In this document: piece after piece, positions 14,646 to 61,918 of the stretch
How the letters are laid out: each line of letters opens with the position of its first letter
Numbering within the stretch: position 1 is the stretch's first letter
Assembly (NCBI GenBank): GCA_963706575.1
Contig: CAVPNL010000011.1
Coordinates: 1-64,000 of the forward strand
Reading direction: 5' to 3'
Origin: an uncultured delta proteobacterium
GTDB lineage: Bacteria; Desulfobacterota; Desulfobacteria; Desulfobacterales; JAHEIW01
DNA: 64,000 bases
The notes under the pieces: model-generated
Told to the model about the DNA's origin: nothing
Database searches by the model: none
Seen by the model: the letters and a program-made list of their open reading frames with translations, nothing else
Made by a program: the position numbers and the translations under genes

Positions 14646-14802
14646 ATCCCTTCGGGATTTAAAGAGCGGCTCTGCAAGCCTTTAAGAGCGGTCCTTCGGA
14701 CCTTTAAGTTCTAAATACAAACAATCCCTTTCCGGCCTTTCTCATCGAGCGAAGCGCTCTTAAAACGCAGCGCAGGGACTGCGCGGAGTGCTCTTCAAGT
14801 CT
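14646..14802. repeat. Intergenic palindromic element of TTTAAGAGC units separated by mini-hairpins
   Basis: Left arm (hairpin-TTTAAGAGC)n, right arm GCTCTTAAA/GCTCTTCAA; between convergent genes. Confidence 0.6.
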
Positions 14803-14838
14803 TGCTTGATGCAAGACGCTCCATATTGTTATTGGGTA

Positions 14839-15987
14839 TCAGTTCTCCTGAGACGGATTGAAATCGTTTTCAGCCGGGCTGGGATAAATGACGATTCGAT
14901 CCCCCGGATGAATCGGCTTTTTTCCGTCCAGCCGGTTCCAGATCATCAGCGCCGGCAGCGGCACATTGAAGCGCTCGGCAATGATCGTCAGGTTATCGCC
15001 TTCTTTGACCACATAGACCCGTTCCTGGTTTTCAGCCACCCACTTTTGAACCAGTTCTTTGAACCGGGCATAATAACCGTCGCCCGCTCCTTTGGGAATT
15101 AACAGCGAATGCGTCCCGGCTGCCAGGAAGTGACCCCGGATTTCCGGATTCAAGTCTTTGATAGTCTTAAAATGAGTGTTGGCTGCCTGGGCGACAATAT
15201 GGATCGGCGTATCCTGAAAACACTCAACCTGAACTCGGTCAAAGCTTAACGGTGGATAAAGGTCCTGGTCTGTAAATTGAAAACCGAATCGCTGCGGGTC
15301 CGATAAAATTATCTTGGCCGAGATAATCCGGAAGATATACCGCTGGGTCTCCAGCGGCAGGTAAAGCTGGTAATAATCATTGGTTTTCTGGGACACGATT
15401 TCGGTTTGCAGGCCCAGTTCTCCCATATTAAAGGCTGCGGCGGCAAGGGTCCAGGAGCCCAGCATTTGATAAAGCTCCTTAAAATAGTTAATGGCAGCAA
15501 GGGTGGATGCAAATATATTGCGCCGCTCGTCGATTTCAGCATTAATTCTCAGCCCGTATTTTTGGCCGGTTGATCCTAAAAATTGCCAGAAACCAATGGC
15601 CCCTTTCGAAGACCCCACATGCGGCCTCAATGCGCTCTCGGCAATTGCGACGTATTTAAGGTCGTCGGGCATCTCGTTTTCACTCAGCATTTTTTCAATA
15701 ATGGGCAAATAGCGGGTGGTGCGTTTTATCCAGAGAACCACCTGGGGCCGATCCCAGATGGTGAGCAGCAATTCCTTTTCCAGGCGCTCACGCACTTCCT
15801 GGCTGTCCAGAGGAACGGCTTCACCGCAAAAGTCGAGCGGCTCTGTGATGTTTACGCCGGCCATCAGAGAGGGCCAGTCGGAAGAGGGTGGCATTCCCAG
15901 CTCCTGCCCGCCGGCGATGCCCGTACCCATCATTATGATCAAAAGTGATGTTAAAAAGATGCGTTTCATATTTACCTTAAAATGCAT
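14839..15987 (-). CDS. MltD-like lytic transglycosylase with LysM domain
   Basis: DLKYVAIAES, GAIGFWQF, AAFNMGE, ETQRY; C-terminal YVVKEGDNLTIIAERFNV LysM. Confidence 0.9.
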   Translation of the reverse strand: MHFKVNMKRIFLTSLLIIMMGTGIAGGQELGMPPSSDWPSLMAGVNITEPLDFCGEAVPLDSQEVRERLEKELLLTIWDRPQVVLWIKRTTRYLPIIEKMLSENEMPDDLKYVAIAESALRPHVGSSKGAIGFWQFLGSTGQKYGLRINAEIDERRNIFASTLAAINYFKELYQMLGSWTLAAAAFNMGELGLQTEIVSQKTNDYYQLYLPLETQRYIFRIISAKIILSDPQRFGFQFTDQDLYPPLSFDRVQVECFQDTPIHIVAQAANTHFKTIKDLNPEIRGHFLAAGTHSLLIPKGAGDGYYARFKELVQKWVAENQERVYVVKEGDNLTIIAERFNVPLPALMIWNRLDGKKPIHPGDRIVIYPSPAENDFNPSQEN

Positions 15988-16267
15988 TTGCGGTGCGGAT
16001 CGAGGAATATAACGTCAATACTCCCACAATGACAAAAAATGCCCCGGCACCCATTTTGATATAATTAGCGGGGATCACACGGCTGATTCCGGCTCCGAAG
16101 ACAACGGCGATCAGCGAACTTAGCACCAGTGCTCCGGCGGAGCCCAGGAATACCGAAAGCCGGGAGTTGCAATCGGCCGAGAAGCAAAACGTTGCCAGTT
16201 GAGTCTTGTCGCCGAGTTCAGCCAGAAAAATTAAACCAAATGTGGTCAGCAGTATTTTGAAATCCAT
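15977..16267 (-). CDS. TMEM165/GDT1 (UPF0016) family membrane protein
   Basis: FLAELGDKTQLA motif; ATG at 16267 with GAGG RBS. Confidence 0.9.
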   Translation of the reverse strand: MDFKILLTTFGLIFLAELGDKTQLATFCFSADCNSRLSVFLGSAGALVLSSLIAVVFGAGISRVIPANYIKMGAGAFFVIVGVLTLYSSIRTANAF

Positions 16268-16297
16268 AGCGTTCCTCACGTACGATAAAAAGATAAT

Positions 16298-16440
16298 AGT
16301 TGGATTAGTTTTATTTGTTTCATCGGTTGAATTGGTTGTCTTAAACCGAACCAATTGAACGAATTAAACCAATCAAACCAATTAAACAGGTGTAATACCT
16401 GACACCTGAATCCGCCTAAGGCGGAACACCTGAAACCAGT
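16298..16440. repeat. Family A (9-mer TTGGTT/AACCAA arms) palindromic element with CTGACAC tail
   Basis: Closely similar to 24553-24662; tail interrupted by the palindrome TCCGCCTAAGGCGGA. Confidence 0.8.
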
Positions 16441-16445
16441 TTCCT

Positions 16446-17315: not shown

Positions 17316-17416
17316 ATTTTTTACATCCGTTGCGATATTCAAACGGACTGATTTTTTGGATCAGCCCGTTAAGTGTGTTTTTTAACCATTTCGTTTCCTT
17401 AAGGCAACCGTTTTCT

Positions 17417-17713
17417 TCAGGCAGCGCCCGGCGGTGGTTCCTCTGCATCAGGACCTTCACATTCCTTTGAAGTCATATCATCCTTCAGATAGTCATACAT
17501 GCTTCCGCTGTAAGAACACTTGATGGCCGTTTTGATTTTTTTTATCAGGTACTCGCTGAGCGCTGCTTCACCGTCAATTCTTAAGCGAAAAGCAATAAGT
17601 CGCTGTAATTTTTTATCCTGCTTATCACGATCCGGCACCATCCGCATCACTCGCTGAAGCGTTTTTTGAAACGGGCCGTCCTGCTGCTCGATTGAAATGA
17701 TATTATCTGCCAT
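17417..17713 (-). CDS. Hypothetical protein
   Basis: AAGGAG RBS before ATG at 17713 (MADNIISIEQ...). Confidence 0.6.
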   Translation of the reverse strand: MADNIISIEQQDGPFQKTLQRVMRMVPDRDKQDKKLQRLIAFRLRIDGEAALSEYLIKKIKTAIKCSYSGSMYDYLKDDMTSKECEGPDAEEPPPGAA

Positions 17714-17742
17714 AATTTTTTCTCCTTCGGAAAAAATTATTT

Positions 17743-22284: not shown

Positions 22285-22288
22285 ATCC

Positions 22289-22421
22289 TTAAAGTGACTA
22301 AAGTGAACTAAAGTGAGCTAAAGTGCCTAAAGTTATGGTGTCGCTTCGCTCAATCTTTTATAAAAATGATAGAATTCCGAAACTTTAGTCACTTTAGGCA
22401 TTTTAGGCACTTTAGGCACTC
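22289..22421. repeat. Family C palindromic element (CTAAAGTG arms, conserved core)
   Basis: (CTAAAGTGA/GC)n - core - (CACTTTAG)n; same core at 45491 and 47017. Confidence 0.85.
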
Positions 22422-23439: not shown

Positions 23440-23560
23440 TTATCCGCAGATTACGCAGATTTCCGCAGATTTAGTCAATTCGTTAACTGCTTGAATAGTC
23501 AATTAGATAGAGGATTCACTCCATTTCAAAACGATTTAACGAATCAACCATTTGACCGAT
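23440..23560. repeat. 9-mer CGCAGATT array plus 8-mer GTCAATT/ATTTGAC palindromic element
   Basis: atccgcaga ttacgcaga tttccgcaga; agtcaatt cgttaact gcttgaat agtcaatt ... acgattta acgaatca accatttg acc. Confidence 0.6.
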
Positions 23561-23630: not shown

Positions 23631-24506
23631 TCATCTGAGAGTGGGGTTCGCGTAACAGAATAAGCAATTGTGGTAACAGGGGTGCTGATGGTAGGAGCCA
23701 ATATCTACAGATACTTTGCAGCCGCATCCTTTTTGAATACGCTGGCCGGTGTCTTTCTTTAAAGCAAGGTTTCCTCCGAAGAGTTCCACAAGCAGTTCAC
23801 TGGGAATACATGCGCTTTGCGTGACGGATGTGTTTGCGGGCAGTGCATTCAAAACATCTTTTTCGCAGCAAAGCTTCAATTTTATATTGGCGGAAGCGAG
23901 AACCTTCTCCAGTTTAAGAATAATTTGTTTTTTTATTTTCAGAGGTGGATCGTAAAAAGAAAAATCTGGCAAGGCGGCAAGGCGTTTTTCAATTTTGGGA
24001 TAGAAATCCATAAAGCTGGTGATACACCATTTAATTCCAAGCTGAGTTGCCTTTTCGACAATGCGGTCCAGGTCGCTGAGGTTATCCTGAATAATACTGT
24101 TATGAGTCTTGAAGAAACAGATGGGGTCAAAACGCCAGTTAATGGCCCGGGATCCAAATTGGTCGCAGAGCTGTTTAAGCTGGCCCAAACGAATATCCAG
24201 GGGGGGCACATGCGGCTCAAGCCGAGGAGATTCCGAATTGATGGTAAAGTTGAAAAAAAGATTGTAGCCGGCCTTTTGCAGCTTTTCTCCACAGTGTTCT
24301 TTTAAAAACAGGCCGAAGTCTTTGGACCAAAAAACAATTGTGTGCACGTGGGCCGGGGTTGCGGGGATCTTCCGGGTTTGCCGATTGTATGGATTGACAA
24401 CTTCAAAAAAATCGCTTTTGATCCGGTTCATGAACCAGGACATGTAAAAGGCAGGAATATCGGTACGCCTGGAGGCCGAGATGACGATTTTAGGGGGAGG
24501 GTTCAA
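23631..24506 (-). CDS. DUF1848 family protein
   Basis: IVISASRRTDIPAFY, VFWSK, WRFDPI, R..CGC..SVDIGSY..C.HNCLFCYAN. Confidence 0.9.
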   Translation of the reverse strand: MNPPPKIVISASRRTDIPAFYMSWFMNRIKSDFFEVVNPYNRQTRKIPATPAHVHTIVFWSKDFGLFLKEHCGEKLQKAGYNLFFNFTINSESPRLEPHVPPLDIRLGQLKQLCDQFGSRAINWRFDPICFFKTHNSIIQDNLSDLDRIVEKATQLGIKWCITSFMDFYPKIEKRLAALPDFSFYDPPLKIKKQIILKLEKVLASANIKLKLCCEKDVLNALPANTSVTQSACIPSELLVELFGGNLALKKDTGQRIQKGCGCKVSVDIGSYHQHPCYHNCLFCYANPTLR

Positions 24507-24662
24507 AGGTTCAACGTTCAGAGGTTCAAAGTTTTAGGGTTATTAAAGATTTGTTGGATTGGTTTTATTTGTTTTATTGGTTGAGTTGGTTGATATAAAC
24601 CGAACCACTTGAACGAATTAAACCAATCGAACCAATTAAACAGATGTAACACCTGACACCTA
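24500..24662. repeat. Family A/B nested element (GGTTCA 7-mers, 9-mer arms, CTGACAC tail)
   Basis: gttcaaaggttcaacgttcagaggttcaaa ... ttggttttatt ... aaccaatcgaaccaatt ... acctgacacc. Confidence 0.85.
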
Positions 24663-25029: not shown

Positions 25030-25130
25030 GGGTTTAAAGGTTCAGGGTTCAACGTTCAAAGGTTCAGGATCAAAGGCCAAAAGGCCTGTTTTATTCGTTT
25101 GATTGGTTCAATTTCAACCAATTGAACAAG
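25030..25130. repeat. Family A/B element, short
   Basis: GGTTCA 7-mers, AAAGGCCAAAAGGCCTGTT linker, short 9-mer arms. Confidence 0.75.
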
Positions 25131-26593: not shown

Positions 26594-26808
26594 AACCCAT
26601 CTCAAAAATAGCGATTTATCTTCGAAGACAGAGAAAAAAGATCCGAAGTTGCTCTAAAGTTAGAAGTGCCTAAAATGACGAATCCACCAAAATTCGAGGT
26701 GGACAAGAGTGATCTAAAGAGTTTGGCCTCACGCAAAGACGCCAAGACGCCAAGGGATTTTTTATTATTTAAATTATCATTCTTCGCGACTTTGCGGCTT
26801 TGCGTGAG
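26591..26808. repeat. Composite repeat: solo TIR-like end, family C units and an ACGCAAAG/CTTTGCGT palindrome
   Basis: TAGAACCCATCTCAAAAATAGC; ctaaagttagaagtgcctaaaatg; ctcacgcaaagacgccaagacgccaag ... cttcgcgactttgcggctttgcgtgag (26728-26808). Confidence 0.7.
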
Positions 26809-26892
26809 CAATTATGCTAAAATGGATTGATTCCGCTTTTCAATTTTAGGTATTGAGGTATTTTTTGCCGATTGTATGAAAAGGAGACAACG

Positions 26893-27930
26893 ATGGGATT
26901 ACACAAATGCAATTGCATGTTCGTTCCGCCGCGGGTTCTGGAAAATCTGGCAAAGGTTGGAGTTGAAAAAGCGAGGCTGAGCATCCAGCAGAGCAAAATC
27001 AGCCGCGCCAAGCGGGCAGACAAGCTGGTCGACATGAAAGCTTTCATCGGGACCAAATCCAAACGCACACCCAGGCGCAAGGTCTATGATTGCCAGAATT
27101 CATGGGAACAGCGGGTCAAACTGGTCAGGGACGAAGGCAAACCGGCGACCGGCGATAAGGACGCGGACCTGGTTTACAAATATGCCGGCAACGTGCGTGA
27201 TTATTTTAAAAAGGTGCTGCAGCGTAATTCCATTGATAACAGCGGAATGGACTTGATCCTCAATGTGCATTTCGGCGAGGAGTACATGAATGCATTCTGG
27301 GACGGGGATGAAATGACCTTTGGTGACGGCGACGGTGAGGTTTTTACCAGTTTTACCCAGTCGCTGGATGTGGTGGCCCATGAGCTGGCGCATGGTGTGA
27401 CGCAGTTTACCGCCGACCTCGAGTATTTCAGCCAGTCCGGCGCGTTGAACGAGCATTTTTCAGATGTTTTCGGCAGTGCCATCACCCAGTACGTTTTAAA
27501 ACAGGACGCCGGTCAGGCGGACTGGCTGGTCGGCAACGAAATTATGGGACCGTCGCTATATGGAGAAGCGCTGCGATCCATGCAGGCGCCGGGCATGGCC
27601 TACGATAACAATCTTCTCGGAAAAGACCCCCAGCCGGCTCACATGAACGATTACTATGCGGGCAATGACGACAACCAGGGGGTTCATATTAACAGCGGCA
27701 TACCCAACCGGGCTTTCTATTTGGTATCGATGGAAATCGGAACCGATAAAGCGGCGCTGATATGGTATGATGCGCTTCAGAAACTGTGGTCCACTGCGAA
27801 ATTTAATGATGCCGTGGAAGTCATTGTTGAATCGGCGCGAATCCTGACCAAACAAAAACAGGTGCCCGTCGGTTCGACCCAGCGGGTGAGGGCGGCTTTT
27901 CGGGAGGTGGGGTTGCCACATGTCACCTGA
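26893..27930 (+). CDS. Protealysin-like M4 (thermolysin family) metalloprotease
   Basis: Short propeptide with C.FVPP, NAFWDG, HELAHG, GALNEHFSD, GVHINSGIPN; AAGGAG RBS. Confidence 0.93.
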   Translation: MGLHKCNCMFVPPRVLENLAKVGVEKARLSIQQSKISRAKRADKLVDMKAFIGTKSKRTPRRKVYDCQNSWEQRVKLVRDEGKPATGDKDADLVYKYAGNVRDYFKKVLQRNSIDNSGMDLILNVHFGEEYMNAFWDGDEMTFGDGDGEVFTSFTQSLDVVAHELAHGVTQFTADLEYFSQSGALNEHFSDVFGSAITQYVLKQDAGQADWLVGNEIMGPSLYGEALRSMQAPGMAYDNNLLGKDPQPAHMNDYYAGNDDNQGVHINSGIPNRAFYLVSMEIGTDKAALIWYDALQKLWSTAKFNDAVEVIVESARILTKQKQVPVGSTQRVRAAFREVGLPHVT

Positions 27931-27939
27931 ACCTTTATT

Positions 27940-28088
27940 CGGTTCAAGGTTCAGGGTTCAAGGTTAAAAAAAGGCGAATAGGCTGAAAGGCTGACAAGCC
28001 AGGAGGCCAGAAAGCGTTGAGGCTCGCCAGCTATAGAGCCTTCAAGCATTCCAGCTTCCCAGCTTTCAAGCTTATGACCTATGAACCG
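27940..28088. repeat. Family E/B nested element (AGGCTGGA-type 8-mer arms inside GGTTCA 7-mers)
   Basis: Reverse-complement relative of 46163-46332. Confidence 0.75.
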
Positions 28089-28102
28089 AAGGAGAAAGTG
28101 TT

Positions 28103-28417
28103 ATGCGAATTGATTATCAGTGTTCCGGCGGATTTGGAGGCTTGCGCCTGGCCTATAAGGGTGAAACCGATGCGCTGCCGGATGACGAAGCCAAAATGTT
28201 GCTGGATTTAATCGAAACGGCAAATGTTTTTGAGCTAGACCCGAATCAAGTCTCACAGAAAACCAGAAACATCCCGGACGATTTTACCTGCCGCCTCACC
28301 CTGTCGATGGCCGGAAGGAAGAAAACATTATCCTTCAACGAACTGGGTGCGCCTGAAACACTGCGTCGTTTGTCGGCTCATTTGCGAAAGCTTGCCATTA
28401 AAAAGCAGAGCGATTAA
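28103..28417 (+). CDS. Emfourin-like M4 protease inhibitor
   Basis: SGGFGGL motif and D.F...LT; about 104 aa; follows a protealysin-like gene as established for this pair. Confidence 0.85.
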   Translation: MRIDYQCSGGFGGLRLAYKGETDALPDDEAKMLLDLIETANVFELDPNQVSQKTRNIPDDFTCRLTLSMAGRKKTLSFNELGAPETLRRLSAHLRKLAIKKQSD

Positions 28418-33535: not shown

Positions 33536-33611
33536 TGTAAATTCTTTGCTCAGGTTAACCGGGTTTATTAAATATAGGGTTATCAGAAGCCCAATGCAAG
33601 ACTCTATCTCT

Positions 33612-33812
33612 TCAGGTTCAAGGGTTCAGGGTTCTGGGTTCAGAGGTTCTTGAAGGTTCAGAGTTAAAACAGGTGTTATATTTGTCGAATTGGTTTAATT
33701 GGTTAAATTAGTTGATCAACCGAACCAATCAGACCAATTGAACCAATGAAACAGATCTTTAGACCTTTTGCCCTTTACCTTTGAACCTTTGAACGCAGAA
33801 CCTTGAACCTGA
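33612..33812. repeat. Complete family A/B nested palindromic element
   Basis: (GGTTCAG)n-linker-(TTGGTTTAA)n|(AACCAATT)n-linker-(TTGAACC)n; inverted near-copy at 36889-37089. Confidence 0.9.
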
Positions 33813-34759: not shown

Positions 34760-34876
34760 GAAATTGGTCGGTACTATAATCTCCTAAAATGAGCGTTTCA
34801 ATTTAGGTCTTTGAAAGTTATGATTATTTTTATCACAGGCATTTTCAACTGACAACTACCGGTTGGATTGTCATTA

Positions 34877-34961
34877 TAACCACAAAGAACACAAAGTGTA
34901 CAAAGATGAATACATGATATATTAAATTCCTTTCTTCGTGTCTTTGTGAACTTTGTGGTTA
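34877..34961. repeat. 9-mer CACAAAG/CTTTGTG palindromic element
   Basis: taaccacaaagaacacaaagtgtacaaag ... cttcgtgtctttgtgaactttgtggtta; related half-copy at 48377-48406. Confidence 0.75.
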
Positions 34962-35008
34962 AAATAAAAGTACCCTTTGGTTTAACAGACAACTATCAGC
35001 CTTTTTAA

Positions 35009-36888: not shown

Positions 36889-37089
36889 TTCAGGTTCAAA
36901 GGTTCAACGTTCAAAGGTTCAAAGCAAAAGGGTTAAAGATCTGTTTCGTTGGTTCAATTGGTCTGATTGGTTCGATTGGTTCAGTTGATCAACTAATTTA
37001 ACCAATCAAACCAATTCGACAACTATAACACTCTTTTTAACTTTGAACCCTTGAACCATGGAACCCTGAACCTCTGAGCCTTGACACCT
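36889..37089. repeat. Complete family A/B nested palindromic element
   Basis: Reverse complement of 33612-33812 with few differences. Confidence 0.9.
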
Positions 37090-37166: not shown

Positions 37167-37239
37167 GTCATTCCCGCGCAGGCGGGCATCCAGTTTTTTT
37201 CGGAAGATATCTCTGGATTCCCGCCTGCGCGGGAATGAC
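37167..37239. repeat. REP-like palindrome pair
   Basis: GTCATTCCCGCGCAGGCGGGCATCCAG ... CTGGATTCCCGCCTGCGCGGGAATGAC. Confidence 0.85.
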
Positions 37240-38387: not shown

Positions 38388-40823
38388 ATGATTGTTACCT
38401 GCAATGAATGTGATTCCAGCTTCAACGTTGATGACAGCCTGATAAAGGATGACGGCTCCAAGGTTCGATGCTCAAAATGCAGCAGCGTTTTTCTTGTTTA
38501 TCCGGAAGCATCCGGATCTGAATGGGGTGAAGATGCCGACGATTTAGCGCTTGAGATGGATGACGGGTTGGATACGGGCCTGGATTCGGGTGATGAATTA
38601 GCGGATTTGGATACGGACAGCGAGGCGGATGATGAATTGCCCGATCTAGAAGATATGATGGATTTTGAAGATGACGAGCTGTCCATCGAAGCGTCTGCCG
38701 AAGAAGATTCCGATGGGCTCGACCTGGACGACGAAGAACTCGATATGGATTTTGACCTGGATGAAGAAAGTATGCTGGAGTCAGATGAATTTGAGCTGGG
38801 CGATATTGAAACAGATGATAGCGACCTGGCCGATATGGAAATGGATCTGGAAGATTTAGATGAAGCCGAAGAAGTCGATACGGCTGAGGCAGAAGCAGAT
38901 CTGGATTTAGACCTGGAAGCCGATGAGGAGCCGATGGTTGCCGCTGAAGACGGGGACGATGAGCTGGACCTGTCAGATCTTGAAGACCTGGTTGATTCCG
39001 ACGCTGAAATGGATCTGGAAGATGTAACCATGGAGGCCGACGAGGCCACAGAGGGTGCCGACCTGGATCTGGAGATGGATCTGAAAGATTTAGATGAAGC
39101 CGAAGAAGTCGATACGGCTGAGGCAGAAGCAGATCTGGATTTAGACCTGGAAGCCGATGAGGAGCAGGCGGTTGCCGCTGAAGACGGGGACGATGAGTTG
39201 GATCTGTCGGACCTTGAAGACCTGGTCGCGGCTGACACAGATATGGGGCTGGAAGGTGCTGCGATCGAAATTACCGAAGATGTTGACCTGGATTTTGATC
39301 TGGAATCGGAAGCGGAGGCAGTCGCAGCAGAAAGCGATGAGTTGGATCTATCGGATCTGGATGATATCATGGATTCCGGCGAGGAATCGGCCGGGGAAGG
39401 TATAGCAGCCGAGGCGGCAGATGAGCCGGAACTCGATTTAGACCTTGATCTGGAAATGGAGCCGGCGGCTGAAGCGCCGGCCGGGGACCTTGAGGGCGCT
39501 GATGAATTAGATTTTTCGGATCTAGAGGGGATCGTCGAATCCGACGACACACCGGCGGAAGCGGCCGACGACCTTGTACTTGATTTTGAGGTGGCAGAAG
39601 ATACGGCAAGCCCGGCAGCCGCAGAAGCCCCACCGCCCTCTGATTCCGAAGAGCTGGGAATGTCAGATCTAGAAAGTATGCTCAAATCCGATGAGATACC
39701 CGTATCCAGTGACGCGGATGAACTGGAATTAGACCTGGATCTTGAGAGCGAAGATGCATCCGAAGCGGTCGATTCTAGCGCTGCACCGGCCGGATCAGAT
39801 GATGCCGAATTTCTAGATATTGAAAAAATGTTGGAGGAAGGTGCCGATACCACACCGGCAGAACAGGAATCTGAAGATCTTGTTGAGCTCGATTTAGAAA
39901 CGGTGATGGATGAGAGTGCCTCATCGACGGAGCCGGAACTTGAGCTGAATCTGGATCTGGATCTGGATGCAGACAGTGACGGGAGTCTTGATATCGCAGC
40001 AACTGCTGAAGACGATCTGGAATTCAATCTGCTGGACGCCGACGAAGAAACCATGCAATTTGGAGCAACCCAGGCGGGAGTTACCCAGGTCGTAGACGAC
40101 CTGGCTGCAGGTAGTGATATGGATGCCCCCAGCGACGAGTTCGCCAGCGATGAGTTTGCCGACAGCTATGATGAAATGGGTCAAACCGACACCCTCGACG
40201 ATGTGGGCATGGCTCCCGCTATGGGTGGGCCGATAAAAACGCGAAAAACTCGTAAACCGTTAATGGTTGCTGTTCTGCTTTTGCTGCTCTGTGTCTTAGG
40301 AATAATTGTGACCAACAGCCTGGGCATCAAAATCCCATTCGTGAGCGAACTCCAGATTCCTTATATCAGTGATGTCAAAATTCCCTATCTTGACGGTTTG
40401 CTGAAATCCAAAACCCAGGATCAGGATATTGCCGGTAACCTGAAGATCAGCCCGCTTGGACGAACGATCTCGTATAAGTTCGTTGAGAATGCCAAGGCAG
40501 GCAAGATTTTTGTGATCAGCGGACAAGTCCGCAATGAATATGATCATCCCCGAAGCAATATCAAGATCACCGGAAAGCTGTATCGAGAAGGTAAGGCGCT
40601 GGTCAAAAGCGCCACTGTATATTGCGGCAATATGCTCAGTGACAGTGATTTGCAGCAGATGGATATTACGGCCATCGGCAAACGGTTGCAAAATCGCTTC
40701 GGCGATAATCGCTCAAATATCAAAGTGAAGACCGGCAAGACCATTCCATTTGTCATCATATTTCCCAAATTACCGGCCAACCTGGACGAATATACGGTTG
40801 AGGTTGCAGGATCCTCTTCATAA
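38388..40823 (+). CDS. MJ0042-type zinc-ribbon protein with long acidic linker, TM and DUF3426-like C-terminal domain
   Basis: CNEC..KVRCSKC N-terminus; about 570 aa of D/E-rich sequence; TM; C-terminal FVISGQVRN..IPFVIIF..YTVEV. Confidence 0.85.
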   Translation: MIVTCNECDSSFNVDDSLIKDDGSKVRCSKCSSVFLVYPEASGSEWGEDADDLALEMDDGLDTGLDSGDELADLDTDSEADDELPDLEDMMDFEDDELSIEASAEEDSDGLDLDDEELDMDFDLDEESMLESDEFELGDIETDDSDLADMEMDLEDLDEAEEVDTAEAEADLDLDLEADEEPMVAAEDGDDELDLSDLEDLVDSDAEMDLEDVTMEADEATEGADLDLEMDLKDLDEAEEVDTAEAEADLDLDLEADEEQAVAAEDGDDELDLSDLEDLVAADTDMGLEGAAIEITEDVDLDFDLESEAEAVAAESDELDLSDLDDIMDSGEESAGEGIAAEAADEPELDLDLDLEMEPAAEAPAGDLEGADELDFSDLEGIVESDDTPAEAADDLVLDFEVAEDTASPAAAEAPPPSDSEELGMSDLESMLKSDEIPVSSDADELELDLDLESEDASEAVDSSAAPAGSDDAEFLDIEKMLEEGADTTPAEQESEDLVELDLETVMDESASSTEPELELNLDLDLDADSDGSLDIAATAEDDLEFNLLDADEETMQFGATQAGVTQVVDDLAAGSDMDAPSDEFASDEFADSYDEMGQTDTLDDVGMAPAMGGPIKTRKTRKPLMVAVLLLLLCVLGIIVTNSLGIKIPFVSELQIPYISDVKIPYLDGLLKSKTQDQDIAGNLKISPLGRTISYKFVENAKAGKIFVISGQVRNEYDHPRSNIKITGKLYREGKALVKSATVYCGNMLSDSDLQQMDITAIGKRLQNRFGDNRSNIKVKTGKTIPFVIIFPKLPANLDEYTVEVAGSSS

Positions 40824-42699: not shown

Positions 42700-42802
42700 T
42701 CAATGATCCTTTCGCGGGAATTTGTTAAATTCATTTTCATTATCAAATAGCAGGCGTCGGGGTCAAACTTATTTTCCGGCTCCTGGCTACTTGCCGTTTT
42801 TT

Positions 42803-42904
42803 AGGTTTCAGGTGTCGGGTGTCCGGTGTCAGGTTTAAGTGTTCAGCATCTAATCCGGAGGTGCTCTACAATTCTGACACCTGAACACTGACACCTGAAA
42901 TCTA
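42803..42904. repeat. Family D palindromic element (GGTGTCA/TGACACC 7-mers)
   Basis: aggtttcaggtgtcgggtgtccggtgtcagg ... ctgacacctgaacactgacacctgaaatct. Confidence 0.8.
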
Positions 42905-42977
42905 TTTGAGGCCCGCGGCCGGTAGCCAGATGGAGGACTTAATTTTCTTTGATAAAATCGATAAAAATGATATAAAA

Positions 42978-43058
42978 AGTGTTTAGTGTTTCGTATTTAG
43001 TGTTTTGTTTGACCCTTGACGTTCTGGCCTTCTGCTGCCAAACACACACAAACACCAA
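42978..43058. repeat. Family F palindromic element (TTTAGTG/CACTAAA 7-mers)
   Basis: Reverse-complement relative of 61827-61918 including the core AACGTCA..GGTCAAACAAAACACTAAA. Confidence 0.75.
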
Positions 43059-43086
43059 TCTTTTCTAAAGACTATCAGAGGATGCG

Positions 43087-43482
43087 ATGATACCGGGTTT
43101 TAATAAAATTGTTGAAGAACGGATTCGCAAAGCCCAAAAAAAAGGTGAATTTAAGAATCTTGAAGGCTCCGGCAAACCGTTAGATTTTCTTGAGGATCAG
43201 GCGGTGGCAGAAGAACTACGCCTGGCCTATAAGATTTTAAAAAATGCCGACTGCCTCCCTCCTGAAATCGAATTGAAAAAGGAAATTCAGCAAACGGAAG
43301 AGCTTCTCAGCGGAATGGGAGAAACCGCTGAAAAATTTCGTACCATGAAGAAGCTCAATTTTTTAATCATGAAATTAAATACCCTGCGGAACACCTCCAT
43401 CGAATTTGAAGCACCTCAAAAATATTCCGATAAAATGATTGAAAAGCTCGAATCATCCACTTCAAGGCGCAAGAAGAAATAA
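43087..43482 (+). CDS. DUF1992 (DnaJ-related) protein
   Basis: IVEERIRKAQKKGEFKNLEGSGKPL..RLAYKILKNA..PPEIEL. Confidence 0.88.
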   Translation: MIPGFNKIVEERIRKAQKKGEFKNLEGSGKPLDFLEDQAVAEELRLAYKILKNADCLPPEIELKKEIQQTEELLSGMGETAEKFRTMKKLNFLIMKLNTLRNTSIEFEAPQKYSDKMIEKLESSTSRRKKK

Positions 43483-43489
43483 TTTGGTA

Positions 43490-43775
43490 AGGTTCTGGGT
43501 TCAGCGTTCAAAGTTTCAGAGGTTAAAGGAAAAAGGCTTAAAGGCCGGTTTCATTAGTTTGATTAGTTCAATTAGTTCGATTGGTTGTTTCTGAAATGGC
43601 GAAGATTTAAAAAATCGAAAATCTTGAATGCTGGCAGGCGGAAACGCAATAACCAATAAAACCAATTAAACCAATCAAACCAATCAAACCAATTAGACAA
43701 ATATAGCATCTGTTTTAACCTTGAGCCTCTAAACCCTTGAACTTCTGAACGCTGGCCATTAGAACCTTGAACCCA
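43490..43775. repeat. Family A/B nested element enclosing a four-helix-bundle gene stub
   Basis: 7-mer arm, AAAAGGCTTAAAGGCCGGTT linker, 9-mer arm, ATG stub, inverted 9-mer arm, linker, inverted 7-mer arm. Confidence 0.85.
43596..43652 (+). pseudogene. Four-helix-bundle (23S rRNA IVS protein family) N-terminal stub
   Basis: MAKI*KIENLECWQA resembles the family N-terminal pattern MxxIxxFEDLxxWQ. Confidence 0.6.
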
Positions 43776-44754: not shown

Positions 44755-45500
44755 TTTTCAGAACGAATCGGGAGCTCAAGGCAAGCTATAATGAATTAAC
44801 GGCCGGGGATGTTTTTATCGGCAACCTGTCATTGAAGTATCTCAAACAACCGATGCTCATCGATATGCTGGAGCGTGGTATACGCTGCCTGCCGTCACCG
44901 CTTGCGCAAATTCTTAACAGTTCCAAAGTCGCCCAGGCATTCATTCTGTATGAATATATGCTTCCGCACACGCAGGCGATATCTCGCCGGACAGATTTGA
45001 TTGAAGCCATAAGCACCTTTGGCAAGAACGGTATCGGGCCTGTTGTGACCAAACAGGATGGCATGCACTGCGGCCATGGAGTCCGCCGGTGGGAAACGAT
45101 TGAAACCCTTTACAGTTTCATGGCCCTGGCTGAATCTTCCTACCCTTTTGTATTGCAGCCCTTTCGAGAGGGCTTTACAGATGTTCGCGTCATCATTGTG
45201 GGAGACTATGTCGAATCCTATACACGCAGCAATCTTTATAATTTCAGGGTAAACTTAAGTTTTGGCGGCACCGGGTCTGCATACAAACTGGATGAGAAAA
45301 AGGAGGCGTTTTGTCGATCTGCCATGCAACGGGGCAGATTCCCGTTTGCGCACCTGGATTTAATGATTTTTGAAAACGGCGAATGTTGTCTGTCGGAAAT
45401 CACGTTAAACGGTGGAATAAAAGGGGCCCGGATCGGCAGGCAGGAACTGGATGAGAAAAAAGAGGCATTCCTGGAAAAAATGGCCGGGAAAAATGCCTAA
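44751..45500 (+). CDS. RimK-like ATP-grasp protein
   Basis: ATGA overlap with the ddl stop; VVTK..GHGV, VLQPF, DVRVIIVG, NFRVNLSFGG, LSEI. Confidence 0.7.
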   Translation: MIFRTNRELKASYNELTAGDVFIGNLSLKYLKQPMLIDMLERGIRCLPSPLAQILNSSKVAQAFILYEYMLPHTQAISRRTDLIEAISTFGKNGIGPVVTKQDGMHCGHGVRRWETIETLYSFMALAESSYPFVLQPFREGFTDVRVIIVGDYVESYTRSNLYNFRVNLSFGGTGSAYKLDEKKEAFCRSAMQRGRFPFAHLDLMIFENGECCLSEITLNGGIKGARIGRQELDEKKEAFLEKMAGKNA

Positions 45501-45622
45501 AATGACTAAAATGAGCTAAAATGCCTAAAGTTAAGGTTTCGCTCGCGCTCCATCTTTATTTAATATGATAGAATTCCTCAACTTTAGGCATTTTAGTTCA
45601 TTTTACATTTTAGTTCATTTTA
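45491..45622. repeat. Family C palindromic element
   Basis: (CTAAAATG)n - core - (CATTTTAG)n; first unit contains the upstream TAA stop. Confidence 0.85.
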
Positions 45623-45643: not shown

Positions 45644-46177
45644 TTGAGCGCAGAACAGAAAAAACAGAGTGATTCCGGTGGGTCAGCTAAAGTGGGCATT
45701 GTCATGGGAAGTGATTCTGATATGGGCGTCATGCAAAGTGCGGCGGATGTCTTAAAAGATTTCGGTGTTGCTTTTGAAATAACGGTTGCATCCGCACACA
45801 GAAGCCCCCAGCGGGCGGCAGTGTGGGCGTCCACCGCCCCCGAGCGCGGCATCAAAGTTATTATCGCCGGGGCGGGACATGCCGCTCATCTGGCCGGAGC
45901 CATGGCGGCTCATACCAGCCTTCCCATCATTGGCGTTCCCATCGACTCTTCCTGTTTACAGGGAATGGACGCCCTGTTGGCGACCGTTCAGATGCCGCCC
46001 GGTATCCCGGTAGCCACCATGGCGATTGGAAAACCCGGTGCCAGAAACGCTGGAATCCTGGCCGTTCAAATCCTGGCCCTGGCAGATGCCGGTCTTGCCG
46101 AAAAACTGCAAGAATACAAAAAGGATATGGCGGCCAAGGTCGAACAAAAAGCGAAAAAGCTTGAAGGTTCAAGCTAG
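45644..46177 (+). CDS. purE: N5-CAIR mutase
   Basis: VGIVMGSDSD, SAHRSP, IAGAGHAAHLAG, VQMPPGIPVAT; AGGAGG RBS with TTG start. Confidence 0.96.
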   Translation: MSAEQKKQSDSGGSAKVGIVMGSDSDMGVMQSAADVLKDFGVAFEITVASAHRSPQRAAVWASTAPERGIKVIIAGAGHAAHLAGAMAAHTSLPIIGVPIDSSCLQGMDALLATVQMPPGIPVATMAIGKPGARNAGILAVQILALADAGLAEKLQEYKKDMAAKVEQKAKKLEGSS

Positions 46178-46332
46178 GCTGGCAGGCTATAACGCTGGAA
46201 GGCTGGAAGGCTCTGAAGCGTGGGGATTTCCGGGTTTTAAGGCTTCATAGCTTTCCAGCCTCCTTGCTTCCCAGCCGATTCGTTTTTTTTGAATTTTTGA
46301 ACCTTTGAACCCTGAACCTTTGAACCTTGAAC
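46163..46332. repeat. Family E/B nested element
   Basis: aggctggcaggct..gctggaaggctggaaggc ... ttccagcctccttgcttcccagcc ... (ttgaacc)n. Confidence 0.8.
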
Positions 46333-47016: not shown

Positions 47017-47142
47017 AGTGACTAAAGTGAACTAAAGTGGGAAGTGCCTAAAGTTTCGGTGTCGCGATGCTCCATCTTTATAAAGATGACAGAATTCCAT
47101 AACTTTAGGCACTTTAGATCACTTTAGGCATTTTAGGCACTT
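47017..47142. repeat. Family C palindromic element
   Basis: gtgactaaagtgaactaaagtg ... core ... actttaggcactttagatcactttaggcattttaggcac. Confidence 0.85.
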
Positions 47143-47358: not shown

Positions 47359-47389
47359 AAAGGGTTGGCCATCTTAGCCAACCCTTTTT
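47359..47389 (+). terminator. Intrinsic terminator after tRNA-Leu
   Basis: AAAGGGTTGGC-catctta-GCCAACCCTTTTT. Confidence 0.8.
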
Positions 47390-47390
47390 A

Positions 47391-47479
47391 TGTTCAATTG
47401 GTTATATTGGTTCAATTGGTTTTATTCGTTAATTCTGAACCAATTAGACCAATTAGACCAATCGAACCAATAAAACAAG
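47391..47479. repeat. Family A element (9-mer arms only)
   Basis: (ttggttcaa)n ... (accaattag)n. Confidence 0.75.
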
Positions 47480-47563
47480 ATGATACCTTTCATCTGTCGC
47501 CTGAAGATATGTTTGCCCGATTAAACCAAAAACTGCTTCAGCGCGACGAGCGTTTCTTTTTCC

Positions 47564-48333: not shown

Positions 48334-48466
48334 AATGATAAGTTCTCCTTGTTTGTTTTAATTTATTCTATCCAACCTTCGTGATCTTCGTTTTCTTCGT
48401 GGTGAGATAACTATCGAAGGTATTCAACTGGAGATTTCCAGATAACCACATTAATTTATTTTAAAT

Positions 48467-49738: not shown

Positions 49739-49766
49739 GGTCAGGGTAAATTTTAGTGTTTGGTGT

Positions 49767-50607
49767 TTAGTGTTTTAAAAGACGCTTAATTTGATCATAA
49801 AGACCTAAAAATCTGTCCTTCCATTCCGGTATTACATCAACCAGCATCTCTCCCCTTGAATAGGCTTCGGCAATCTGTCGATCAAAAGGAATTTCCATCA
49901 GAATCGGTAGGTCCGTTTGATGGGCATATTTTCTGACTTTGTCATCGCCCAGATCAGATCGATTGATGACCAATCCCAACGGAATATTGAGTATTTGAGC
50001 CGCGCCGACTGCCAATTTTAAGTCATGCAGGCCAAAAGGAGTGGGTTCTGTGACCAGAAGCACAAAGTCGGTATCTTTCATGGACGCAATAACCGGACAT
50101 GAAGTTCCCGGAGGCGCATCAATGATAGTGAGTTTATCCGGATTTTCAAAGGAACGTACTTTTTTGATCAGCGGCGGAGACATGGCTTCACCTACCCGCA
50201 ACTTGCCGTGAATGAACTCAATGCCATTGCTGTGGCCTTTTTGAATGACACCGAGTTCCCGACCACTTTGCGTGATGGCGCCTTCCGGACAGACTTCCCA
50301 GCATCCGCCGCAGCTATGACAGAGTTCTTCAAAAACCAATACATTTTCATTCACGACTGCAATGGCCTTAAACTGGCAGATGTCTGCACATTTTCCGCAA
50401 TAGGTGCACTTTTCTTCATTGACTTCCGGCACCGGCATGAAAAACGGTCTCCGATTCTTCGAATGAAGGATTGATAAAAAGGTGCGCATTGGGTTCTTCC
50501 ACATCACAGTCCAGCAACTGAACATTGGAACCCATCGATCGGGCCAAATTTGTCGCCACCGTTGTTTTACCGGTCCCGCCTTTTCCACTGGCAATGCTGA
50601 TAATCAT
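49767..50607 (-). pseudogene. Second COG1149-like ATPase, frameshifted by one extra base at 50440-50444
   Basis: MIISIASGKGGTGKTT..DCDVEEPN..ETVF in one frame and FMPVPEVNEEKCTYCGKC..DAPPGTSCP in the next; T5 run at the junction (may be a sequencing error). Confidence 0.85.
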
Positions 50608-56361: not shown

Positions 56362-56507
56362 TAGAAATGGTTTCAAAACCCCATCTAAGGCTCAATGGCT
56401 GCGTTGCAGGCCTCCGATAAATGCTCACATACATTTGTATGCTGCGCGTTATCGATCGGCCTGCGCCTTGCCCTTGAACCTGATCTGAGGCTTTGAAATC
56501 ATTTCTA
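56362..56507. mobile_element. MITE-like element, 146 bp
   Basis: TIRs TAGAAATGGTTTCAAAACC / GGCTTTGAAATCATTTCTA (17/19 match), TA termini, internally palindromic, non-coding. Confidence 0.75.
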
Positions 56508-56705: not shown

Positions 56706-56952
56706 ATTTAAAGGTTCAGGGTTCAGAGGTTCAGAAAAAGGCCTAAAGGCCAGTTCGATTGGTTTGATTAGTTCAATTAGTTTGACAGGTTATTTCGGAA
56801 ATGCCGACGATAAAATGATTTGAAAATCTTGAATGCGTGTAGGCGTAAAATCACCAACAAATGACCAACCAATTATAACCATTAACCCGAATCCAAAACA
56901 GTTTCCTCAAACAAACCAATTGACAACGGATGGCGTTGCCTGACTTTTAACC
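56706..56952. repeat. Family A/B element enclosing a second four-helix-bundle stub
   Basis: GGTTCAG arm, AAAAGGCCTAAAGGCCAGTT linker, 9-mer arm, ATG stub at 56801, degenerate right arm. Confidence 0.8.
56801..56848 (+). pseudogene. Four-helix-bundle N-terminal stub
   Basis: MPTIK*FENLECV*A; TGA and TAG fall where Arg and Gln are expected, each one base from a sense codon. Confidence 0.55.
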
Positions 56953-58774: not shown

Positions 58775-58934
58775 GTTCAAGGGTTCAGCGTTTGTCTATT
58801 CGGTTTAAGGCGGGTAATTTTTTTGTTAAATTTGTTTTATTGGTTTCATTGGTTTAATTAGTTGAATTAGTGAATTATCCGAACCAATCGAACAAATCAG
58901 ACCAATTGAACTAATAAAACCGGCCTTTAGGCCT
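58773..58934. repeat. Family A/B element between convergent genes
   Basis: Touches both stop codons; 9-mer arms; AACCGGCCTTTAGGCCT linker (reverse complement). Confidence 0.8.
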
Positions 58935-61033
58935 TACAGCTCAAAGACCACCGGTTCCCGTAATATCATCTCAATTGCCCGGTCGGCCGTTACGGCCGCA
59001 TCGGGAAATACCTGCCGGAGCGCGCGGATATGCCGCAGATTGTCTGCGGTTCTCAGGATCAGCATCACCAGGTCCCCTTCCTCCATCTCGGCCTGGATTT
59101 GTACCTTCTCCCACTGTTCTCCGTTGGCCCAGGCATAAATTGCCGCCACCGGTCTTAAGTGAAAAGGGCGTGCTTCAAATCCGCGATCCTGCATCTGCCA
59201 GGCAAAAGGCCTTAACCCTTTGACGACCCTGTAGAATGCGTCCAAAAGCGGTCGGGGGAGGCGCTTTTTGTGAATTTTGGTATCGGATTCGCGTTCATTG
59301 ACAAAGGCCGCGATGATCGCTGCCAGAAGGCCCGGCTCGGATTTCGGCAGGATGCCCAGCTGAAAGCCCTCGGCAATTAAAAGCGGCTGGTCCACCCGCA
59401 ATTGACTGGTCCATTTTCCCTTCTCGGTCAACTCTCCGCTGCCGGTGACGTAAGCGCTGTCCTTAAGAAAATCCAGATGCTGCAAAAAATCACCCCAAAG
59501 AATGCGGCGGCGGTCTTTGCGGGATTTTTTTTGGGGGGTCTTTCGGAGTAAATAGGATGCAAACGAGCGACCGAGCAAATCTTTAACCTGATCGGGGCTA
59601 TGCGACAGCAGCAGATTCAGTACCATTGAAAAATTAATTTTGATTTGACTGGCAACGTCCGAAGCCCTTGTCTGAAACAATTTCGCCATCCAGCGAACAT
59701 CCATGAATTTGTTGGGCAGCAGCAGGGCGAAACCGATATTATCCATGCCTCTGCGGCCGGCCCGGCCGGTCATCTGATGAAACTCGGTGGCATCCAGCGG
59801 CAGAAACTGGGTTCCGTTAAAACGGTCTGAATTTAAAAAGACCACCGTACGGGCCGGGAAATTCACACCGGCCGCAACCGTGGATGTGGCAAATACCGCA
59901 TCCAGCAAACCCTCGCTCATCAAGCGCTCGAGCATCAGTTTCCAGGCCGGCAACTGGCCGGCATGGTGCGAACCCAGTGCCAGGTTCTCAAGAAACCAGC
60001 GTTGACGATGATGAATCACATGCGGACTTTGATGAGCTGACGTTTCAATCCGTTCTTTGAGAACGGCATTTCGGCCGGGGTCCGCTAACCATTTTCTGCG
60101 GCACTGCTCCAGGGCGCGGTCGCAATCCGCCCGGGATTTCAGGAAAAAAATGGCCGGAAGAAGGTCATATTTCTTCAATACTTTCAGAACATCGTCAAAA
60201 GGCAGCAGATAATCCGGCATCCGGCGGTATCGCGAGCCTTTGGTTTTTAAAAAATCGGCGACTTTTTTATAAATTTTTTCTTTGCCTGCGGTTTTTGCAG
60301 GCTCGGTTAACGGCAGCAGGGTACCGGAAGGATGTAAAAAAAGCGGGGCCAGCGGCACCGGTCTCTTGTACTCCCTGATAACCGTGCAGCGGGATGAGCG
60401 AATCGAAGAAAGCCAGCCGGCGATTTGGTCGGCATTGCCGATGGTTGCAGAGAGCAATAAAAGCGGGATGCGCTGTGGCAGATAAATCATGATTTCTTCC
60501 CAGACCACCCCGCGGTCCGGATCTCCCAAAAAATGCGCCTCGTCCAGAACCACAAAATCTGCCGCCAGTAATTCACCGCGGTGCATGGCATCATAGAGCT
60601 GGTTTCGCAAAATTTCAGTGGTTCCCACAATGATCGAAGCGTCCGTATTTTCTTTACGGTCCCCGGTTAATATACCAACATGCTGCCGGCCGAAGATGGC
60701 GGAAAATTCCGCATATTTGGCATTGCTCAGCGCTTTCAAAGGGCAGGCATACCAGGATCTTCCGCCGCCGGCATGAATGCGGGCGATGGCTTTTTCGGCG
60801 ATCCAGGTTTTTCCGGAACCGGTCGGCGCGGTCACCAGACAATCGCTGCGCTCTAACGCGGAGATGGCATCGAGCTGGAAGGCATCCGGTGTGAAAGACG
60901 GGTTTTCGGGCACGCCGATTTCAGCAAAAATTTTTCGGAGTCCTGCATCGGCGCCCGGTTTCAGATGGGGGTGTTTGGGTTTCTTGCGGGGGTAACGCCG
61001 TGGCCGCAAGAAACGTTTGCTGCGTTTTGCCAT
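58934..61033 (-). CDS. Ski2/HelY-like DEAH-box helicase
   Basis: APTGSGKT, PLKALSN, LDEAH, LSAT, HHAG, QMTGRAGRRG, EEGDLV. Confidence 0.9.
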   Translation of the reverse strand: MAKRSKRFLRPRRYPRKKPKHPHLKPGADAGLRKIFAEIGVPENPSFTPDAFQLDAISALERSDCLVTAPTGSGKTWIAEKAIARIHAGGGRSWYACPLKALSNAKYAEFSAIFGRQHVGILTGDRKENTDASIIVGTTEILRNQLYDAMHRGELLAADFVVLDEAHFLGDPDRGVVWEEIMIYLPQRIPLLLLSATIGNADQIAGWLSSIRSSRCTVIREYKRPVPLAPLFLHPSGTLLPLTEPAKTAGKEKIYKKVADFLKTKGSRYRRMPDYLLPFDDVLKVLKKYDLLPAIFFLKSRADCDRALEQCRRKWLADPGRNAVLKERIETSAHQSPHVIHHRQRWFLENLALGSHHAGQLPAWKLMLERLMSEGLLDAVFATSTVAAGVNFPARTVVFLNSDRFNGTQFLPLDATEFHQMTGRAGRRGMDNIGFALLLPNKFMDVRWMAKLFQTRASDVASQIKINFSMVLNLLLSHSPDQVKDLLGRSFASYLLRKTPQKKSRKDRRRILWGDFLQHLDFLKDSAYVTGSGELTEKGKWTSQLRVDQPLLIAEGFQLGILPKSEPGLLAAIIAAFVNERESDTKIHKKRLPRPLLDAFYRVVKGLRPFAWQMQDRGFEARPFHLRPVAAIYAWANGEQWEKVQIQAEMEEGDLVMLILRTADNLRHIRALRQVFPDAAVTADRAIEMILREPVVFEL

Positions 61034-61789
61034 CAGAGCTTTGAGATCATCGCCTTTACGCGGTCTTTTGACGGCGAATCAACGTCAAACGGCGAGGCCC
61101 CGTTGAGATCCGCTTCGATCAATGCTTCATCATAGGGGAGAAAACCGAGGAATTCAAAATCGTCCAGGTGGGTTTGCAGAAATTTTTCGTCTTTTGCCCC
61201 GCGGACCTTGTTGCCGACAACGGCAATGTGGTTCAGTCCGATTTCTCCGGCCAGCTTGCGGATATGTTCGGCGGTATCGATGCTGCGCCTTCCCGGCTCC
61301 ACCACCACGATCAGTTTGTCAACAGCCTTTGCCGTTGCCCGGCCCAGGTGCTCGATGCCGGCCTCCATATCCATGACCACCACTTCATCGCGAGCCAGCA
61401 CGATGTGCATGACCAGGGCCCTGAGCAAGGCACTTTCGGGGCAGATACAGCCGGATCCGCCTTTTTTGATACCGCCCAGGCGCATGAGTTTGATACCCTC
61501 AAAACCGACCGATACCGCATCCGGCAGGTCATCCACTTTGGGATTGAGCTTGAAATAGCCGCCGATGCTGCCGGGTTTCGCACCGGTTCTTTCAAATATG
61601 AGTTCTTCCATTTCAGCGATGGGCACGATTTTATCGGAATCGGCAATTCCTAAAGCGGCAGCCAGATTGGCGTCCGGATCCGCATCGATGGCCAATACGC
61701 GTTTACCCTCAGCATTGAGGGTGCGAATCATTAAAGACGGCAAATGTCGTCTTTCCAACGCCGCCTTTACCGCTGACTGCCAGTTTCAT
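61033..61789 (-). pseudogene. cooC: CooC-family Ni-insertion ATPase, frameshifted by one extra base near 61738-61740
   Basis: MKLAVSGKGGVGKTTFA from 61789 in one frame; SLMIRTL..IDADPDANL..GSGCICPE..DMEAGIEHLGR in the next. Confidence 0.85.
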
Positions 61790-61826
61790 AATTTTATCCT
61801 CGATTTTTATAAAGTTGAGTTCATCA

Positions 61827-61918
61827 AGTGTTTAGTATTTGGCGTTTAGTGTTTGGTGGCATAAACGACAAAACGTCATCGGTCAAACAAAACACTAAAC
61901 ACAAAACACCAAACATCT
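61827..61918. repeat. Family F palindromic element
   Basis: gtgtttagtatttggcgtttagtgtttgg ... aaacactaaacacaaaacaccaaaca. Confidence 0.75.

Follow-up and report, generated by a model that had tools for sequence, protein, structure and literature searches.

The stretch analysed here, referred to as the window, is 64,000 nucleotides of contig C11 from a 5.67 Mb assembly (G000) of an uncultured delta proteobacterium, a genome that is 92% complete. Between positions 14644 and 61915 many gaps between its genes, which were called with our own dicodon caller, contain repeat elements in which tandem copies of a short unit (left arm) are followed by a core and by tandem reverse complements of the unit (right arm). 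The first-pass annotation had reported about 24 such elements. All ten unit types lie where it placed them and the count was close; by eye there are 23 sites, of which 20 have one two-armed element each and three are one-arm or broken sites (25036, 48377, and 49752). The solo arm at 23443 adjoins a two-armed element. The labels gidA, dnaJ, purD, mutL, and comEA are provisional ones given from the translations. The elements are as follows.

14644..14800, unstranded: GAGCG-type element, a gene-less relative of the arms around the four-helix-bundle gene C8:10974; the same element occupies this junction in congeners G005 and G009, and a different family in G014
16299..16438, unstranded: ATTGGT9 (AACCAATT) hairpin (16299-16387) plus an outer GGTGTC7 right arm; the junction holds the GATTTT7 family in G002 and G014
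22288..22421, unstranded: CTAAAR9 element with the family core
23443..23560, unstranded: solo CGCAGATT left arm (23443-23472), then a GTCAAT8 element
24500..24662, unstranded: ATTGGT9 hairpin between a left arm of GGTTCA7 and a right arm of GGTGTC7
25036..25130, unstranded: GGTTCA7 left arm and a broken ATTGGT9 remnant
26728..26808, unstranded: CGCAAA8 (ACGCAAAG) element, with its cognate GxxExxY gene at C6:266171
27941..28085, unstranded: GGTTCA7 outer arm with a GGCTGG8 interior; the interior differs in G005 and G018
33611..33812, unstranded: ATTGGT9 enclosed by GGTTCA7
34873..34965, unstranded: CACAAA9 element upstream of the gidA-like gene
36892..37085, unstranded: ATTGGT9 inside GGTTCA7, lying between the stop codon of gidA and the TTGACA box found upstream of the dnaJ-like gene
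42786..42935, unstranded: CTGGCT-type outer arms enclosing a GGTGTC7 element; missing in G009
42978..43065, unstranded: GTGTTT7 (TTTAGTG) element
43480..43775, unstranded: composite of ATTGGT9 within GGTTCA7
43596..43648, + strand: relic covering roughly the opening 15 codons of a four-helix-bundle gene from the ATTGGT9 clade (E 5.5e-5 to L156)
45490..45622, unstranded: CTAAAR9 element whose left arm provides the gene upstream with its stop codon; a copy on C15 is 95% identical
46176..46332, unstranded: GGCTGG8 (AGGCTGGA) element plus a GGTTCA7 right arm
47017..47142, unstranded: CTAAAR9 element
47385..47483, unstranded: ATTGGT9 element downstream of tRNA-Leu
48377..48445, unstranded: CACAAA9 right arm, then an end of the MITE type (miniature transposable element with inverted repeats); missing in G014
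49752..49775, unstranded: solo GTGTTT7 arm at a gene junction
56712..56925, unstranded: GGTTCA7 and ATTGGT9 composite, 79% identical to the element at 43480
56801..56850, + strand: second relic of a four-helix-bundle N-terminus
58775..58920, unstranded: GGTTCA7 arm and ATTGGT9 hairpin; the junction holds the GGTGTC7 family in G005 and G018
61829..61915, unstranded: GTGTTT7 element adjoining a MITE-like end

The genome-wide scan for inverted and tandem repeats that had been proposed as a check yielded, after merging, 20 unit families with 591 elements at 556 loci, 510 of the elements lying outside small duplicated contigs. This family scan used 21 regular-expression patterns, all derived from this same genome; ATTGGT9 and GTTATT7 overlap slightly, and the GACAGA7 pattern found no paired element. 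It returned 600 inward-facing versus 6 outward-facing pairs; the shuffled genome and the interiors of long genes gave none. In 443 of 3761 intergenic gaps there was a tandem 6-mer and, after it, the tandem reverse complement, compared with 2.0 in shuffled gaps. A first X-drop scan was too strict, and the relaxed per-gap detector overlooks several elements that are visible by eye. Each arm consists of non-palindromic 6-10-mers in tandem, and the core between the arms has a median length of 44 bases. Roughly one in five mid-sized gaps (466 of 2258) contains an element; the elements total 64 kb and supply 45 host stop codons. Thus, they reshape gene ends and untranslated regions.

The families consist of dispersed homologues. 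At 412 of the 556 loci there is a whole-element homologue elsewhere, with a median identity of ~74-83% depending on the family, and 99 of 110 CTAAAR9 cores are homologous. Nearest homologues are mostly distant, with 41 of 464 outside the small duplicated contigs lying within 100 kb versus 21.8 expected. In 14 of 15 families an element's own arm complements its partner no better than the arms of other copies do. The nesting order proposed earlier, 7-mers outside and 8- or 9-mers inside, describes 21 of the 22 nests found genome-wide, all of them GGTTCA7 or GGTGTC7 outside ATTGGT9 or GTCAAT8, but it is not a general rule because 7-in-7 nests also exist (window 42786; G018). DNA mini-hairpins with a GNA triloop are extra-stable. 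CTAAAR9 cores, such as that at window position 22340, carry a GCG-N-AGC motif, and the triloop, with all four bases at N, is present in 31 of 50 matched cores; GNA triloops are not enriched in element gaps genome-wide. CTAAAR9 cores are unbiased in orientation relative to the replication strand (22 vs 18), in a genome of weak GC skew and with inversion able to erase a bias.

Some elements enclose a gene. The genome has eight PF05635 (four-helix-bundle; TIGR02436) and four PF13366 (GxxExxY; TIGR04256) genes, and 10 of the 12, including seven of the eight PF05635 genes, are flanked by such arms. We collected 88 distinct four-helix-bundle and 29 distinct GxxExxY proteins from 22 congeneric genomes; setting aside the 11 of these 117 genes with short flanks left 80 and 26 to be scored. 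Strict arms flanked 50 of 80 four-helix-bundle and 19 of 26 GxxExxY genes, compared with 3 and 2 when flanks were swapped and 14 and 4 for arms in the same orientation. An association between unit and cargo had been suggested as possible and is borne out in protein trees. With unlabelled and singleton tips set aside, the nearest neighbour had the same unit for 37 of 37 four-helix-bundle and 17 of 19 GxxExxY tips, versus permutation means of 4.0 and 3.7. Four-helix-bundle clades have GGTTCA, GGTGTC, GTGTTT, GTCAAT, CTAAAR, and many other 6-9-mers as their units, and GxxExxY clades have CAC/CGC-type 8-10-mers.

A cognate clade is known for nine of the ten units first described. The AGGCTGGA family has no cognate gene among the 117 cargo genes. 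For ATTGGT9 none was found in the genus; four genes from other taxa, found by a scan that presupposed a left arm and the N-terminus, form one clade, and one of them has a clear right arm. Two window elements (43480 and 56712) hold the first codons of this gene clade. GIY-YIG genes, also named as candidate cargo, were absent among the long-core pairs listed, although no separate search for them was made. The function of the GxxExxY family is listed as unknown in PMC3424549. Its structural model (pLDDT 94.8) has a PD-(D/E)XK fold with D...E-x-K catalytic residues, which assigns the protein to that class as modelled. The best structure matches were BpuSI (Z 8.3) and Cas4 SSO0001 (Z 7.9); fold searches returned generic PD-(D/E)XK matches only, with Holliday-junction resolvases ranking lower, a placing that does not argue against them.

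Array numbers follow the presence of the cognate gene. Carriers had more arrays per Mb than non-carriers for CTAAAR9 (13.4 vs 2.7, p 0.002), GGTGTC7 (23.2 vs 7.8, p 0.004), and CGCAAA8 (7.0 vs 2.8, p 0.028). Of 12 off-diagonal tests pairing a unit with a non-cognate gene, none was significant at p 0.05; permuting within genomes put the joint p at 0.0006 over 23 events in genomes that are related. The proteins are under purifying selection, with dN/dS of 0.07-0.13 across all tested clades, armed or armless, when saturated pairs are left out. All 24 GxxExxY genes of armed clades retain D68/E78/K80. Damaged catalytic motifs were seen in the armless GxxExxY clade and in one gene with foreign arms; of four armless genes, three have Asp changed to Asn and the fourth Gln to Arg. 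An armless four-helix-bundle clade lies behind one same gene in 15 of 16 readable flanks; most armed clades are found at two or three loci. Throughout the genus this clade (L060, L042, G000 C4:622288, and relatives) is conserved behind what we take to be a comEA-like gene. A hairpin lies upstream of it, and it may have a domesticated function.

Junctions remain occupied while families turn over. For 14 window junctions, 54 of 77 orthologous congener gaps were occupied, of which 12 had the same family set and 37 had a family absent here; the classifier is conservative with some cross-matches, and the count omits G019 and three junctions lacking a classifier score in G000. Outer GGTTCA/GGTGTC arms were often retained as interiors changed. 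In three congeners (G002, G005, and G018) the CTAAAR9 core at 22288 has the opposite orientation, which shows recombination between the arms at the DNA level. Three haplotypes inside the assembly differ as well. One junction has a GxxExxY cassette in one haplotype and an empty GTGTTT7 element in another, and the mutL junction has a Y1 transposase with REP-like repeats in one (C19) and a four-helix-bundle cassette in two others. In both cases divergence extends into the ends of the flanking genes.

Two observations concern these haplotypes. G000 C6:736-753 kb, C19, and C20 are three homologous versions of one region, roughly 80-99% alike, indicating that the assembly mixes strains or species; further small contigs duplicate parts of C5, C6, C15, and C16. 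The Y1 transposase at the cassette junction (L178:395-922; C19:5517-6261) is accompanied by GTGGGAG-type hairpins of the repetitive extragenic palindromic (REP) kind.

Within the arms, motif positions are fixed and spacers are free, which fits arrays of binding sites. Spacers paired below chance in ATTGGT9 (2/78 vs 9.8), CACAAA9 (0/27 vs 3.6), and GTGTTT7 (4/30 vs 9.7), and the purine position of CTAAAR9 paired above chance (71/103 vs 53.6); these counts are not independent since copies share ancestry.

Taken together, we give a probability of about 0.5 to the reading that the window elements belong to selfish cassettes, each a gene plus its arms, and their gene-less derivatives, with the cognate protein probably promoting a recombination-type copying. 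The window elements would be gene-less, internally shortened copies of four-helix-bundle or GxxExxY cassettes. The cognate protein likely recognises its own 6-10 base unit and likely promotes the copying of full and empty cassettes into gene junctions, and the arms would act as DNA binding arrays in duplex or extruded-hairpin form. GxxExxY, as a PD-(D/E)XK protein, would nick or cut at the arms. The four-helix-bundle oligomer, which has no known catalytic site, would instead pair arms or recruit host repair. Repair would take a same-family arm elsewhere as template and so leave nested elements, swapped interiors, and no duplicated target. Between lineages, elements would be exchanged through homologous recombination of the core genes on either side, and some few copies hitchhike in MITEs of the insertion sequence (IS) type.

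Several points weigh against this reading. Binding, cutting, and movement are all predicted from sequence. Four families, ATTGGT9 (94 copies), GGTTCA7, CACAAA9, and GGTGTC7, have no cognate gene in this genome, 92% complete as it is, and only 5 of 504 cores match their own family's gene (E<1e-3), three of them in composites. Linkage alone can explain the agreement between unit and clade. One of the four families in the copy-number comparison was not significant (CACRAAG9, 13.7 vs 6.5 arrays per Mb, p 0.18). That comparison draws on related, incomplete metagenome-assembled genomes in which the CTAAAR9 and GGTGTC7 carrier sets overlap, and causation may run backwards, with many arms capturing or keeping a gene. 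The armless clades have dN/dS of 0.08 and 0.13, so the proteins can have arm-free roles, and the loss of catalytic residues amounts to one or two events. CGCAAA8 cassettes are at a single locus in four of four cases. The youngest, most similar dispersed copies (92-99%) reach MITE-type ends, some with flanking direct repeats, and we found no clean empty/filled site with defined ends.

Some of the same observations would follow if the arms were passive landing pads, that is, short homologies used by host recombination, with the genes captured in places rich in arms, the unit match arising from cis-linkage, and the proteins unrelated to the process. Core inversion, interior swaps under persistent outer arms, the modest excess of nearest homologues within 100 kb, the abundant families lacking a cognate gene here, and the conservation of armless genes are all consistent with this. 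However, this leaves unexplained why both arms switch unit in concert across many protein clades, why the motif positions are fixed where the spacers are free, and why armless GxxExxY genes have damage to their catalytic residues. We consider passive landing pads unlikely.

The first-pass annotation had also suggested a shared mechanism, in which each unit may be tied to a cognate cargo protein, and long, register-slipping hairpins that could act in processing or stability. The tie of unit to cargo clade holds; RNA processing or stability as the main role is not supported. Most window elements are predicted to fold strongly on both strands, and many have a low minimum-free-energy frequency, which fits register slipping. 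Elements acting at the RNA level would be hairpins that serve as substrates of RNase III or as binding sites of the cargo protein and that benefit the host by processing, stabilising, or uncoupling mRNAs. An RNase III gene is present in the genome, and RNase III cuts the Coxiella 23S rRNA intervening sequence (IVS), which has GACAGAT heptamers, at the first repeat (PMC4990558). Short divergent gaps are seldom occupied (3 of 141), unlike tandem gaps (223 of 811) and convergent ones (49 of 138), and the above-chance pairing of the CTAAAR9 purine position also fits a paired RNA. Nevertheless, 15% of larger divergent gaps (33 of 220) contain an element, spacers are under-paired in three families, and family turnover at the same junction is fast. 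Sense-strand arms had no G·U excess (350 G·U vs 425 A·C) and folded no better than the other strand (189 vs 234 cases). Gene-bearing cassettes were likewise balanced (61 vs 59), whereas terminator controls showed the excess (21 vs 7). The lack of G·U or sense-strand bias does not support a mainly RNA-processing role, and we regard host-serving RNA elements as improbable, although RNA processing may make insertions tolerable. The best RNA runs, which consist of relatives' contigs, matched only 5-7% of the words; the four of eight that were compared gave no ends and only joints that paralogous copies explain, which says nothing for or against processing.

Very improbable, in our estimation, is retro-mobility, in which the four-helix-bundle protein would act like Avd with a reverse transcriptase to turn hairpin-bounded RNA into DNA. 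A weak match to the Avd profile (E 6e-4, far under the cut-off) and the structural relatives 2GSC and 2RLD point this way, but the genome has one reverse transcriptase locus (C4:301693), which adjoins no cargo gene, and the GxxExxY families would not be covered. Orientation relative to transcription was also unbiased (36 vs 32 and 36 vs 23), although inversion could remove a bias of this kind. Spread of the elements solely as cargo of IS-derived MITEs, as the most similar dispersed copies with their MITE-type ends might suggest, has the slimmest chance, since few loci are bracketed by the MITE end motifs tested (6 of 556, a regex-limited lower bound) and homology mostly stops 2-30 bases past the arms. 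Target duplications were seen around MITE-borne copies only, apart from one ambiguous 9-10 base repeat at 42786.

The elements resemble the RAYT/REPIN systems described by Bertels and Rainey 2011 (PMC3116915). Both are extragenic inverted doublets with many gene-less copies and a separate protein gene for each repeat class. The cargo here is TIGR02436 or TIGR04256, unlike RAYT, an HUH/Y1 transposase; the arms are tandem non-palindromic 6-10-mers rather than the 20-40 base palindrome of REP; and ~20 families share one genome, nest, and replace one another. No Y1 gene was enclosed by arms among the long-core pairs listed, and the C19 Y1 gene that we inspected has other repeats. By analogy, the elements would work like RAYT/REPIN but are not members of that class.

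Open reading frame (ORF)-bearing 23S rRNA IVS (S23p; Coxiella; PMC4990558) likewise have a four-helix-bundle ORF between inverted repeats, and the GACAGAT of Coxiella is the unit of one cassette clade here (L034-L036 and L062). In contrast to the IVS, the elements lie in hundreds of mRNA junctions, none in rRNA, and have no RNA-strand pairing bias. By this architecture and repeat unit, ORF-bearing IVS look like an rRNA-resident relative. The 23S gene of this genome (C4) has no ORF or repeat insert. Several small helix expansions, with no ORF among them, make the 23S rRNA gene at L177:5250-8294 exceed the Rfam model by ~120 bases.

Cyanobacterial short tandemly repeated repetitive (STRR) sequences are kindred intergenic tandem heptamer repeats. 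Tandem 7-mers in intergenic gaps also occur in Xanthomonas and Nostoc (PMC4692102), with 70-75 convergent inverted heptamer pairs in Xanthomonas, and in Beggiatoaceae (PMC4679880). As far as the available text of these papers goes, the spreading mechanism is not known, G-quadruplexes or translational control are proposed, and a cargo link is lacking: the main text of PMC4679880 contains no 'helix bundle' and PMC4692102 names no cargo gene. The elements share with IS-derived MITEs that they are short, non-coding, dispersed, and internally deleted, but most loci are without transposase-type termini and show no apparent target duplication. Identity of the cargo with Avd of diversity-generating retroelements was rejected (20 bits versus a cut-off of 80; the single reverse transcriptase locus is not beside a cargo gene). 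In a literature search with supplements and most subscription papers outside its coverage, no paper connected the cargo genes to tandem-inverted arms located at mRNA junctions.

A broader proposal is tentative, and we hold it at less than even odds. The non-enzymatic four-helix bundle and the 128-residue GxxExxY nuclease may be sequence-specific mobilisers of transposase-free selfish DNA, each clade recognising a tandem word of its own and spreading hundreds of empty copies in trans, with 23S IVS and the heptamer repeats of many phyla as by-products. This would offer one origin for heptamer repeats so far explained separately (G-quadruplexes, regulators, or rRNA inserts) and testable cognate substrates for two very large families of proteins whose function is unknown. 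The genome and its congeners offer matched protein-word pairs for tests of specificity.

The absence of elements from 1-14600, attributed earlier to an island, is true for these families, but the island extends only from 1 to about 8440, few gaps precede 14643, and element-free runs are common. It is bounded by tRNA-Asn (c8440-8515) and contains a serine-recombinase fragment and an ISAzo13 transposase. Only six gaps of at least 100 bp precede 14643, two of them outside the island in 8516-14643. None of the six is occupied, compared with 22 of 31 (hand count) in the rest of the window (Fisher p 0.002); against the genome rate this is not significant (P 0.24). Element-free stretches longer than 14.6 kb make up 21% genome-wide, with the longest runs at 80-106 kb. 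The comparison of density between atypical and typical DNA, which had been suggested, did reveal a difference: 8% of gaps are occupied in the decile of lowest GC3 (third-position GC) and 11% in that of the least typical codons, versus 25-27% in typical DNA. Depletion in atypical DNA is thus genome-wide yet moderate. Upstream of the island's recombinase fragment, 7161-7370 contains inverted arrays of TTGTCGAG 8-mers; being single copy in the genome, the TTGTCGAG array is not among the dispersed families.

Other repeats are present in the window. A ~143-base MITE with GAAGTGGTTTCAAAA-type ends lies at 56362-56507, and 40 such end pairs occur genome-wide. A sister MITE family with GAACCCATCTCAAAA ends has 30 pairs in the genome and single ends near 26594 and 58760. 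At 37167-37239 there is a near-perfect 27-base inverted pair of the GTCATTCCCGCG type, which is REP-like and has similar pairs on C19 and C20. A 234-base tandem duplication (38832-39255) lies within a very acidic zinc-ribbon protein. The small operon at 26872-28417, which has an element in its junction, looks like one for a protealysin-type protease plus inhibitor. Two type IV pilin-like genes are in tandem at 62055-62881. Elsewhere in the genome, ARAGORN called tRNA-Pyl at G000 C15:118432 and tRNA-Sec at C3:141925.

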